Shown: positions 24,120-25,528 of the stretch, in pieces
How the letters are laid out: each line of letters begins with the position of its first letter
Position numbering within the stretch: the first letter of the stretch is position 1
IMG/VR virus record: IMGVR_UViG_3300022917_000002
Coordinates: 1 to 57,023 of that record
DNA: 57,023 nucleotides
Source of the DNA: a virus
Taxonomy: Duplodnaviria; Caudoviricetes
Direction: 5' to 3' (one strand)
Notes under the pieces: model-generated
Databases searched by the model: none
Seen by the model: only the letters and a program-made list of their open reading frames with translations
What the model was told of the DNA's origin: nothing
Program-made: the position numbers and the translations under genes

Positions 24120-24148
24120 TTGACGCCCACGCGCATAGTGGGTAGTGT
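24120..24148 (+). promoter_or_regulatory. Promoter/operator of the RNA cluster
   Basis: TTGACG-CCCACGCGCATAGTGGG-TAGTGT. Confidence 0.85.
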
Positions 24149-24202
24149 TCAGGTCAGGCGGACAACGCGAGCCCACTGCCCAAGGGCTCGACCCCGCCGC
24201 CC

Positions 24203-24222
24203 GGAACTTGACAACTGCACAC
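24203..24222 (+). promoter_or_regulatory. boxA-like antitermination element
   Basis: CTTGACAACTGCACA resembles actinobacterial rrn TTGAGAACTGCACA; preceded by hairpin CGAGCCC/GGGCTCG. Confidence 0.5.
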
Positions 24223-24228
24223 GAAGAC

Positions 24229-24520
24229 TCGCAGGGCCCGTCCTTCCCACGGCCTGGCTCGACCGCCGTCCAACCGGACCGTCCGGCGGGCCCTGCGACC
24301 GAATCCCACCGACTGTCAGGCAGGGCGACACGATGGGGCGTGGCCGGAGGCCTTCACGGGCCTAGCGGGGCGCGCTCCACAAGCTCACCTGTAGGCAGGA
24401 TCGAGGGATCGAGAGGGGCTGCGCCCCGCTGGCAAGTCGCCCGGCAACGGGAGAGAACAAGGCGGGATGCGGTGAGCCGGGACTTGTACCGGTATGCAGG
24501 GAAGTTGACCGCGCCCTGCC
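24229..24520 (+). ncRNA. Unassigned highly structured RNA
   Basis: Stems 24229-40/24287-98, 24319-27/24512-20, 24364-73/24421-30, 24433-45/24476-86. Confidence 0.6.
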
Positions 24521-24549
24521 AGCCCCCACATACCTACCGAGGAGACACC

Positions 24550-24723
24550 TTGTCCGACAAGCCAGACGACTCCTGGAAGTCCGGCCAGAACACCATCGGC
24601 GAAGCGATCGTCGAGGACCTGTTCCGGGACGTGCCCAAGAAGGGCAACGAGCACCCGACGAACAGGACCCCGCCGCCCGGCGGCAAGCGCAAGCAGGACG
24701 GCGACGGCAAGAAGCCCAAGTAG
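24550..24723 (+). CDS. Charged microprotein embedded in RNA cluster
   Basis: GAGGAG RBS, TTG start, ends DGKKPK. Confidence 0.6.
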   Translation: MSDKPDDSWKSGQNTIGEAIVEDLFRDVPKKGNEHPTNRTPPPGGKRKQDGDGKKPK

Positions 24724-24777
24724 GGGGGCACTCAGGCACAGCGACGGTGCGGACCGCGAATCTTGATCCGTCGCTGA

Positions 24778-24873
24778 GGGGCGTGGTGTAGCACGCACTG
24801 GGTCCTAGTACCCGCAGGGTCGCTCCTGCGGGGAACACGACCCCGGCGGCCGAGTAGCGACCGGCCCGCCCCG
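24778..24873 (+). ncRNA. Degenerate cloverleaf (tRNA-like)
   Basis: GGGGCG/CGCCCC closing stem, TGGTGTAGC start, three internal arms, no TTCGA. Confidence 0.4.
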
Positions 24874-24907
24874 ACCCCCCTCCTGCGGGTAGCAGGACCA
24901 GAGCGAT

Positions 24908-25038
24908 CGTCCCGTGCCGGAGTCCGGCCGAACGGGAAGCCTCGGAGCGCGTAAGCCTTGAACCGGGCCGTAGCCGAGGCCGAGGGGATGCGACGGGTCC
25001 TAACGCGCCCCACGCGGGTTCGAATCCCGCCGGGACGA
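24908..25038 (+). ncRNA. tRNA-Ser-like RNA with anticodon arm replaced by ~58-nt insert
   Basis: Acceptor CGTCCCG/CGGGACG, Ser-type D arm TGCCGGAG..GGCCGAACGG, long variable arm, T arm GCGGG-TTCGAAT-CCCGC. Confidence 0.7.
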
Positions 25039-25053
25039 TCGCAGGCTCAGCAC

Positions 25054-25124
25054 GGCCCCATGGTGTAGCGGCAGCACGTCGGTCCCTCAAACCGACGGCG
25101 CGGGTTCGATCCCCGTTGGGGCTA
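25054..25124 (+). tRNA. tRNA-Glu(CTC), atypical C33
   Basis: Full cloverleaf: GGCCCCA/TGGGGCT, anticodon loop CCCTCAA, T loop TTCGATC; no encoded CCA. Confidence 0.85.
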
Positions 25125-25133
25125 CGCACACAG

Positions 25134-25485
25134 GCTCGGTAACCCCAGGGGCATGGTGATGTCCTGTGAGAGACCGAGCGGCATATCCCACTGTGGGTGA
25201 GGGACTGCCGGCCGAGGCGCAACGGCATATCACGCGCACGCCCTGCCGGTCAGCTGGGTACTGGCTGGCAGGGCCCACATGCTCGCTTCGGCGGGGTCGT
25301 GGAGATACGGGGCGCCACGTCGTGGCGTTGTCAGATTTCGCTGAAGGGCCCACTACGCCTCCCCGCGTCACAGGGAGGTCGGGTACCTGCGTGGCGTCCC
25401 TCTCCGCGCGTGTGGGTTGCTGGACGGACCGGGTGACTCCCCCGGGCGGGCTCCAGCCGCAGGCCCGCCGTGATGTAGATGCGGG
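25134..25485 (+). ncRNA. Unassigned structured RNA domains
   Basis: Consecutive hairpins and a multibranch domain 25274-25416 with a C(UUCG)G loop; no credible ORF. Confidence 0.55.
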
Positions 25486-25489
25486 TAGT

Positions 25490-25528
25490 CGGCCCGCCCT
25501 GGGTGACTGGGGCGGGCCGCACTCTTTT
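25490..25528 (+). terminator. Intrinsic terminator of RNA cluster
   Basis: CGGCCCGCCCTGG-GTGA-CTGGGGCGGGCCG followed by CACTCTTTT. Confidence 0.75.

Follow-up and report, generated by a model that had tools for sequence, protein, structure and literature searches.

A candidate stable-RNA operon with a look-alike of the actinomycete rRNA leader box in a phage genome

Clusters of tRNA genes in phages are well known, and antitermination of the kind that operates on ribosomal RNA (rRNA) operons (rrn) is textbook knowledge. The tRNA cluster of phage T4 encodes eight tRNAs together with two co-transcribed stable RNAs, species 1 and species 2 (rnaC and rnaD), and to our knowledge carries no rrn-type leader box. 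Another tRNA-related architecture is that of YrlA (Y RNA-like), in which a Ro-binding terminal helix is combined with an internal tRNA-like module. For rrn operons, boxA of the nascent RNA is reported to load NusB:S10 and to be sufficient for the antitermination complex, with differing consensus sequences (UGCUCUUUAACA in E. coli, AUGAUCUUUGAAA in B. subtilis) (PMC13753749), and NusA of M. tuberculosis is reported to bind specifically at the rrn boxC region, which adjoins boxA (PMC2724277). The large ornate RNAs GOLLD and ROOL are the subject of a cryo-EM study (10.1101/2024.12.08.627333), and a survey of structured RNAs in IMG/VR includes tRNA-like candidates (PMC10690425). Here we analysed positions 24120-25528, called the cassette below, of the IMG/VR virus record IMGVR_UViG_3300022917_000002, whose 57,023 bp (the window) form a complete phage genome with direct terminal repeats and a G+C content of about 70%. 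An earlier note made from the letters alone had read this stretch as an RNA operon running from promoter to terminator and essentially free of protein.

We favour, with a probability of roughly 0.6, reading the stretch as a stable-RNA operon of the phage whose transcription is subject to rRNA-type antitermination; the cassette probably yields one tRNA-Glu, a tiny protein and two tRNA-shaped RNAs that belong to no catalogued family (Table 1). This reading is carried by the lack of coding signal, a promoter family, the conservation and rrn likeness of a leader box, the conserved hairpin that follows it, covariation in the modules M7 and TL1, the tRNA and the terminator. The layout resembles that of rrn leaders, whose boxA/boxC signal works through the NusB-NusE(S10)-NusA-NusG complex; there a short box likewise lies in a 5' leader, after a strong promoter and before a long, untranslated, structured, tRNA-containing transcript. 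It differs from them in that a local hairpin follows the box, whereas rrn operons have a leader-trailer helix around 16S, in one base of the box itself (see below) and in the absence of rRNA from the cassette. By description only, the T4 cluster is also similar, since its tRNAs are co-transcribed and processed with small stable RNAs, some of them tRNA-shaped, but hosts and RNA motifs are unrelated. With GOLLD and ROOL the cassette shares its association with phages and a place beside tRNA genes. When the window and six related loci were scanned with all 4,227 families of Rfam 15, only tRNA passed the gathering score and nothing credible beyond tRNA appeared at E <= 10 or E <= 5, in agreement with the earlier note, which could assign no family. 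No match of the window to GOLLD or ROOL was obtained, whether at the gathering threshold or with E <= 10. Moreover, these two have a conserved architecture of 600-800 nt, whereas the cassette is a string of 60-140-nt modules, variable between relatives, plus a protein gene, so that the suggested likeness to a large ornate RNA of the GOLLD/ROOL kind was not borne out.

Table 1 Predicted and observed features of the cassette (positions in the window)
Feature	Position	Strand	Description
Promoter	24120-24148	+	-35 TTGACG, 17-nt spacer with inverted repeat CCCAC..GTGGG, -10 TAGTGT
5' leader stem-loop	24150-24200	+	GGCGG..CCGCC around CGAGCCC/GGGCUCG; minimum-free-energy (MFE) and centroid fold
rrn-leader-like (boxA/boxC-type) box	24201-24222	+	CCGGAACTTGACAACTGCACAC; core CTTGACAAC at 24207-24215
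HP1, long hairpin	24229-24298	+	12-bp perfect Watson-Crick closing stem; 14 pairs in MFE fold
M2-position element	24298-24416	+	closing helix AUCCC/GGGAU of M2 kept; core differs
Three-way-junction domain (predicted)	24415-24533	+	closing GGGGCUG/CAGCCCC, GCAA-capped hairpin; adjoins ribosome-binding site of the small gene
Small gene, 57 aa	24550-24723	+	TTG start; ribosome-binding site GAGGAG at 24537-24542, 7 nt before start
9-bp hairpin	24739-24777	+	CAGCGACGG..CCGUCGCUG; past the small gene; from fold
M7, multi-stem element, ~100 nt	24778-24876	+	closing stem GGGGCG/CGCCCC; 7-sequence alignment
TL1, tRNA-like RNA, 135 nt	24905-25042	+	from fold and L006 homologue; no encoded CCA
tRNA-Glu(CUC), 72 nt	25054-25125	+	ARAGORN; Rfam RF00005 59.1 bits (threshold 29); no encoded CCA
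3' structured domain, 365 nt	25126-25489	+	14-bp hairpin (~25240-25273), UUCG hairpin, long irregular helix
Intrinsic terminator	25490-25528	+	13-bp stem (11 G-C pairs) at 25490-25519, 4-nt loop, then CACUCUUUUCC

Genes were recognized by the G+C content of third codon positions (GC3), a sharp marker in a genome of 70% G+C. The GC3 frame plot runs at 0.9-1.0 in the flanking genes and is flat at 24116-24549 and 24724-25650. Between these two segments it rises to 0.9-0.97 over a 57-aa open reading frame (ORF) with a GC3 of 56/58 (binomial p = 1.6e-7), a value matched by none of 858 non-coding 174-nt windows. The ORF is a genuine gene and no chance ORF; therefore, the supposedly non-coding stretch consists of two blocks of 434 and ~805 nt flanking a small gene. 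What had been described as one non-coding stretch thus holds in so far as GC3 is flat over 24116-25528 apart from the ORF, but the ORF itself is real.

Related cassettes were sought through the terminase (~61% identity), which led to four IMG/VR phages of 50-60 kb (L002, L004, L005 and L006) and to a fifth, L003, whose cassette crosses the contig end and is the one listed as L088. A pattern of promoter plus leader motif added L083, L094 and L098 (partial). Of the 10 metagenome matches to this pattern, L092 and L095, which have low G+C and no other similarity, were left out of the counts as chance matches; L093, a doubtful match, was left out of all counts as well. The terminase-found cassettes measure 1.1-1.4 kb, lie 7-8 kb downstream of the terminase and end at the next promoter of the type with which they begin. 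This promoter type starts the cassette in every relative, and in frame plots the L006 and L002 cassettes (1.1-1.4 kb) gave no coding signal. Relatives thus keep cassettes in syntenic position (1.1-1.8 kb), in agreement with the protein-poor unit, running from promoter to terminator, that had been proposed. Their tRNAs vary (Glu(UUC), Glu(CUC), Val(AAC) and Val(CAC)), and the cassette of L083, longer than 1.7 kb, has a different, cysteine-rich small ORF. The relatives have many modules in common, and the window stands furthest apart: BLAST detects only four things that it shares with them, namely the leader motif, a GNRA hairpin region of 36 nt, M7 and TL1, and most of its cassette has no BLAST-detectable counterpart in the eight other cassettes. 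Compared in this way, the cassettes are mosaic arrays whose modules are gained, lost and shuffled between relatives.

The promoter belongs to a family, TTGACNCCCA-N(4-12)-TGGGT, with seven matches in the window, where 0.00 were expected; the seven lie between 17740 and 30628, each of them on the + strand. A generic promoter scan did not call it and listed only one promoter, at 25583. At the other end, CACTCTTTTC comes after the terminator stem. Both ends had been recognized by the earlier note, and both stand, the promoter as one of a seven-copy family and the terminator with its 13-bp stem and following tract. The seven promoters are near-identical (TTGAC(A/G)CCCA..TGGGT), each has the inverted repeat CCCAC..GTGGG in its spacer and each precedes a small gene; the repeat has the appearance of an operator common to all seven and serving one early-region regulator.

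The leader contains the box core CTTGACAAC, which occurs once in the window. It lies 59-67 nt past the -10 hexamer, and the ~1.3 kb that follow have one small ORF. It is present in all five cassettes found via terminase homology, 61-73 nt after the TGGGT of the promoter. For comparison, leaders of 16S rRNA were taken from Actinocrispum first and then from a class-level sample of 61 actinomycete genomes, 35 of which had a 16S match and 29 a usable leader (>=100 nt). TTGAGAAC was found in 27 of the 29 leaders within 420 nt upstream of the 16S start (among the offsets printed, mostly 150-255 nt before it and one at 82), and the consensus of the 27 boxes is CCGtTCCTTGAGAACTCAACAG. A weight matrix built from these boxes and run over ~1,800 nt per phage cassette placed its best site at the CTTGACAAC motif in 9/9 cassettes. 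The phage boxes are identical to this consensus, which is that of actinomycetes and may not be the host's, at 13-18 of 22 positions (15 in the window). The matrix score was matched by 2/300 shuffles for the window, 0/300 for L006, 2/300 each for L004 and L098, and 12/300 for L083. The box of L006 comes closest (18/22), with ACUC.ACAG downstream and a likeness that reaches beyond TTGACA on both sides, e.g. CCG upstream. Judging from these comparisons, we take CTTGACAAC to be a genuine and conserved look-alike of the box in actinomycete rrn leaders, and by analogy it may work as an rrn-type antitermination signal. The boxA-like site of the earlier note proved to be real and strictly conserved. 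The stem-loop preceding the box includes GUCAGG, which recurs in the leaders of the relatives in the leader alignment.

A perfect Watson-Crick stem of 8-14 bp begins 18-23 nt after the start of the motif in 8/8 cassettes. These stems comprise at least five unrelated sequences, and their lengths were reached by 0-16 of 200 shuffles of the same 105 nt. Therefore, structure after the box is conserved without sequence. The stems were measured sequence by sequence, and the outer stem of HP1 was not aligned by MAFFT plus RNAalifold. A 12-nt stretch, CTCAACAGTGTG, in L002 (~17460-17475) and L088 is identical to the Actinocrispum 16S leader just past its TTGAGAAC box; it sits in a module common to L002, L088 and L004 and may be a second rrn-like element of the boxC type.

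Among the modules, covariation supports three parts of the cassette only: the post-box hairpin, M7 and TL1. Besides its closing stem, M7 has two hairpins, one short and one, on the 3' side, of 5 bp with a 9-nt loop, as well as a long arm that carries an AGUA // GAAC internal loop and ends in an 8-bp tip helix. Its conserved internal loop, AGUA // GA(A)C, resembles a loop-E or bulged-G motif. RNAalifold on the window and six sequences from relatives gave 23 pairs, 10 of them doubly changed, and neither the covariation score nor the number of doubly changed cells was reached by any of 500 shuffles. Indeed, 84.5% of the cells are paired, compared with 36-57% when partners were slid by 1-3 columns, and the strongest helices are the long-arm tip (4/7 pairs doubly changed) and the 3' hairpin (4/6). 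The covariance model of M7 recovers 24768-24879 at 86.6 bits; over 23 sources it found just the seven training sequences, the next matches having E = 0.17-0.68, and a search with the M7 hairpin pattern matched the contig of L083 alone. In contigs of four DNA runs, strain variation amounted to nine single-base differences and one deletion, too few for a covariation test; one of them, C>T at 24782, turns a G-C pair of the M7 closing stem into G-U.

TL1 is modelled as a tRNA body that would have no decoding loop. It has a 10-bp acceptor-type stem, a class-II-type D arm with GG, a variable arm of 8 bp and a T arm of canonical form (GCGGG UUCGAAU CCCGC), and at the position of the anticodon arm an extended arm of 7+3+4 bp with an internal loop and a 6-nt loop that is not conserved. 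Its homologue in L006 (17722-17854) is 75% identical, with a terminal helix of 9 bp instead of 10, and the common fold of the two has 40 pairs, five of them changed on both sides. ARAGORN reports TL1 only with introns allowed (a 45-nt "intron"), and then with an 8-bp acceptor. Neither TL1 nor M7 matched the Rfam tRNA model even at E <= 10 in a 1.9-kb search. TL1 shares the GG D arm, canonical T arm, long variable arm and over-long acceptor stem with class II and other long tRNAs (tRNA-Sec; also the allo-tRNA type), but its anticodon arm is replaced by the 7+3+4-bp arm and it has no score as tRNA or tmRNA in Rfam. The YrlA model of Rfam has no match in the window, and TL1 differs from YrlA in that its T arm abuts the terminal helix, as in tRNA. 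A pattern for elongated tRNAs matched seven loci, of which one is the TL1 of L006 and six do not fit the TL1 model, two or three of the six being long tRNA-like RNAs of other phages. Three unrelated IMG/VR phages (L099, L100 and L105) have tRNA-like sequences of 130 nt in which the acceptor helices are over-long and large insertions separate the D arm from the T arm; elongated tRNA mimics may be common in phages.

ARAGORN and Rfam found no tRNA in the cassette besides Glu(CUC), and no tmRNA was found by ARAGORN at default settings or by Rfam; tmRNA calls at an ARAGORN threshold of 70% were implausible ("Tag not identified"). A DNA search of 50,697 phage records matched the tRNA-Glu only, over 69 nt in one mycobacteriophage. 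Three tRNA or tRNA-like units had been counted earlier, of which one tRNA and one tRNA-like RNA (TL1) remain; the third, M7, is a multi-stem element with no T-loop. The element at the M2 position reached 9.3 bits (E = 0.074, not significant) with the covariance model of M2 (R1) and is therefore a positional analogue, not a member, of what is the relatives' most conserved module; M2 is found in seven relatives, where its insert varies from 18 to 66 nt and one helix shows a double change from C-G to U-A, and the variant in L005 scores E = 6e-4. A pattern for the M2 core matched known relatives only in viral contigs and nothing in genome contigs. Part of the three-way-junction domain (24424-24459) is 80.6% identical over 36 nt to L002 and L088.

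Several observations weigh against the operon reading. On the side of the box, 4/9 cassettes were gathered with a pattern that contains it, leaving five that are independent for its presence. The matrix scores are low or negative in 4/9 cassettes (L002 as L084, L005 as L086, and also L088 and L094), where 27-117 of 300 shuffles equal the score, because a single base invariant in both sets differs between them, giving GAGAAC in rrn and GACAAC in the phages. Ungapped alignment to one rrn leader, that of Actinocrispum, stayed at chance level in 8/9 cassettes, L006 excepted. The mismatch and the chance-level scores favour an alternative in which CTTGACAAC works as DNA, as an operator or as a -35-like site for a sigma factor or regulator, and its rrn likeness is a coincidence; the motif indeed includes TTGACA, the -35 hexamer, and the inverted repeats of the promoters already suggest control by a protein. 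However, no -10-like hexamer lies 16-19 nt downstream in the window, L002 or L006, the likeness to rrn extends past TTGACA on either side (most clearly in L006, whose score no shuffle matched), and the motif lies, as rrn boxes do, in a transcribed leader before >1 kb of untranslated RNA. We consider this alternative improbable.

On the side of the RNAs, the seven M7 sequences represent ~5 lineages and the closing helix is ambiguous between subgroups, whereas the TL1 model, run over 33 sources, found the window and L006 only, i.e. a single relative. For the 3' domain, which makes up about a quarter of the finding, BLAST gave no match in the eight other cassettes, so its status depends on thermodynamics: its MFE is -215.2 kcal/mol (z = -2.36), 1/100 shuffles folds equally well and the + strand fold is 23 kcal/mol more stable than the reverse complement. 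Against dinucleotide shuffles, the z-scores are -1.69 for the 5' block, -1.43 for 24724-24904, -1.48 for TL1 and -2.36 for the 3' block, i.e. just 1.4-2.4 standard deviations below the shuffles. Moreover, the strand asymmetry of folding energy is mixed, the 5' block being more stable on the minus strand. Since folding goes barely beyond what 70% G+C leads one to expect, dense pairing by itself is no evidence, and the description of the cassette as almost continuously base-paired was dropped as a distinguishing feature; the GNRA and UUCG loops described with it do occur, as GCAA at ~24438 and UUCG at ~25287. Tandem, ToxI-like repeats were not found. Finally, no RNA run was among the public runs that match the stretch, and prophage relatives in named genomes (L117-L119) had no cassette in the DNA fetched.

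The modest z-scores, together with the bulk of the cassette that has no homologue, would fit an ordinary phage tRNA region in which one working tRNA-Glu lies amid decaying tRNA copies and spacer that look structured because of the 70% G+C. The 5' part of M7 and the D and T arms of TL1 do look tRNA-derived, and relaxed ARAGORN thresholds yield many spurious tRNAs here. Decay of this kind is at odds with cassettes of 1.1-1.8 kb kept in relatives at ~61% terminase identity, with helix-preserving double changes in M7, TL1 (five pairs) and HP1, and with the cassette's own strong promoter, terminator and conserved leader box. Therefore, such a region is an unlikely explanation. The covariation check, which the earlier note had named as a way to test it, thus came out in favour of the post-box hairpin, M7 and TL1 and gave no support to the other parts.

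The 57-aa protein has one homologue, P0002 (52 aa, 68% identity, encoded on a 2.5-kb contig), a C-terminus rich in lysine, glycine and proline, and no matching family in Pfam. As the gene is real and a predicted three-way junction stands directly before its ribosome-binding site, the two non-coding blocks could be long 5' and 3' untranslated regions that regulate it in the manner of a riboswitch or attenuator. We find this very improbable: neither L006 nor L002 has the gene in its cassette, L083 has a different small ORF, the conserved box, HP1, M7 and TL1 are not next to the gene, and no riboswitch family of Rfam matches. The 53-aa gene before the cassette and the 57-aa gene end alike (..DGKAPK*, 24100-24115, and ..DGKKPK*, 24708-24723), and an exact 15-nt repeat, GACCCCGCCGCCCGG, occurs in the leader (24190-24204) and inside the small gene (24666-24680), which hints at duplication or recombination in the building of the cassette.

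From these data we infer transcription as one unit, recruitment of Nus factors, processing, and roles for the RNAs other than the tRNA, along the following lines. The promoter, of a strong housekeeping-sigma type and one of seven near-identical early ones, would give a transcript of ~1.37 kb. The leader box, ~55 nt after the predicted start (its actinomycete counterpart lies 150-250 nt upstream of 16S rRNA), would recruit the host Nus-factor antitermination complex, which would shield the long, untranslated, structured transcript from Rho and pausing, as for rRNA, and perhaps assist its folding, so that transcription would run on to the terminator. RNase P and 3' tRNA-processing enzymes would then cut the precursor at its tRNA-shaped units, giving tRNA-Glu(CUC), TL1, M7 and further folded pieces, and the 57-aa protein would be translated from the same transcript. 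The tRNA-Glu would supplement or replace a host tRNA. TL1, which keeps the "elbow" half of a tRNA (acceptor and T arm) and lacks an anticodon loop, would most likely occupy a tRNA-binding host enzyme as a mimic, or alternatively serve as a punctuation mark for processing. Phage tRNAs are reported to counter tRNA-cleaving defences (PMC10264068, PMC11555353); a decoy role for the anticodon-less TL1 is therefore plausible by analogy. For the cassette RNAs in general, the decoy, scaffold or anti-defence functions proposed earlier are pure conjecture.

A bolder and rather doubtful version would have a clade of soil actinophages run a "mini rRNA operon", in which the mimic of the rrn box hijacks Nus factors for the mass production of an RNA toolkit of counter-defence decoys or inhibitors. 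The toolkit would comprise TL1, M7, the M2 of the relatives and the 365-nt 3' domain of the window, directed against tRNA-directed host defence or tRNA-processing enzymes; if so, it would be a new class of RNA-based counter-defence. In our literature search, nothing was found that joins boxA with phage tRNA genes and nothing on tRNA-like RNAs of actinophages, and the contig names of six relatives were not found in the searchable part of the supplements of PMC10690425. A phage RNA operon joining a tRNA cluster with an rrn-box look-alike and uncatalogued conserved RNAs was thus not found in print. If the leader truly recruits Nus factors, the operon would show how phages secure the synthesis of long untranslated RNA and would provide a simple sequence handle by which non-coding RNA operons of phages can be found. 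In addition, TL1 and M7 are concrete candidates for RNA mimics.

The window carries the gene set of a siphovirus, with terminase (15692-17293), portal, capsid, tape measure, SSB, Erf and a DnaC-like loader. No capsid of a deposited phage exceeds 37% identity to its own, and the phages with the top matches infect Arthrobacter, Gordonia, Microbacterium and Mycobacterium; terminase relatives in named genomes occur in an Actinocrispum wychmicini prophage (54%) and in metagenome-assembled genomes of Micromonosporaceae and Mycobacterium. Near-identical DNA is present in metagenomes from leaf litter, soil and groundwater. Taken together, these relatives and sources indicate that the host is some actinomycete. 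IMG/VR gave no relative for the gene at 25951-26289, a neighbour of the cassette. The 83-aa protein encoded two genes before the cassette (23534-23785) has an Excalibur calcium-binding domain (E = 1.1e-7), and in L004, L005 and L006 a small CxxC protein takes its place immediately upstream of the cassette.

Some further features were seen in the relatives. In five phages with terminases 50-53% identical (L110-L114, or G001-G005), tRNA-containing stretches of ~0.8-1.3 kb show little coding signal, and neither a CTTGACAAC box nor similarity to the window was found in them. In the one record worked out, the stretch lies ~16 kb from the terminase. The cassette of L094 (WUUC01098723.1, 1981-3790), the richest member of the family, is ~1.8 kb long with no evident ORF and at least five units bearing a T arm. 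A conserved T-arm minihelix (GGGGTTCGAATCCCT..) occurs in L006 (18165-18260), in L083 (minus strand, ~520-440) and in the L094 cassette (~1386-1470). It is immediately followed by a stretch resembling the 5' half of the phage tRNA-Glu (acceptor strand and D arm), with no ARAGORN call there, which is the order of a permuted or split tRNA-like gene.

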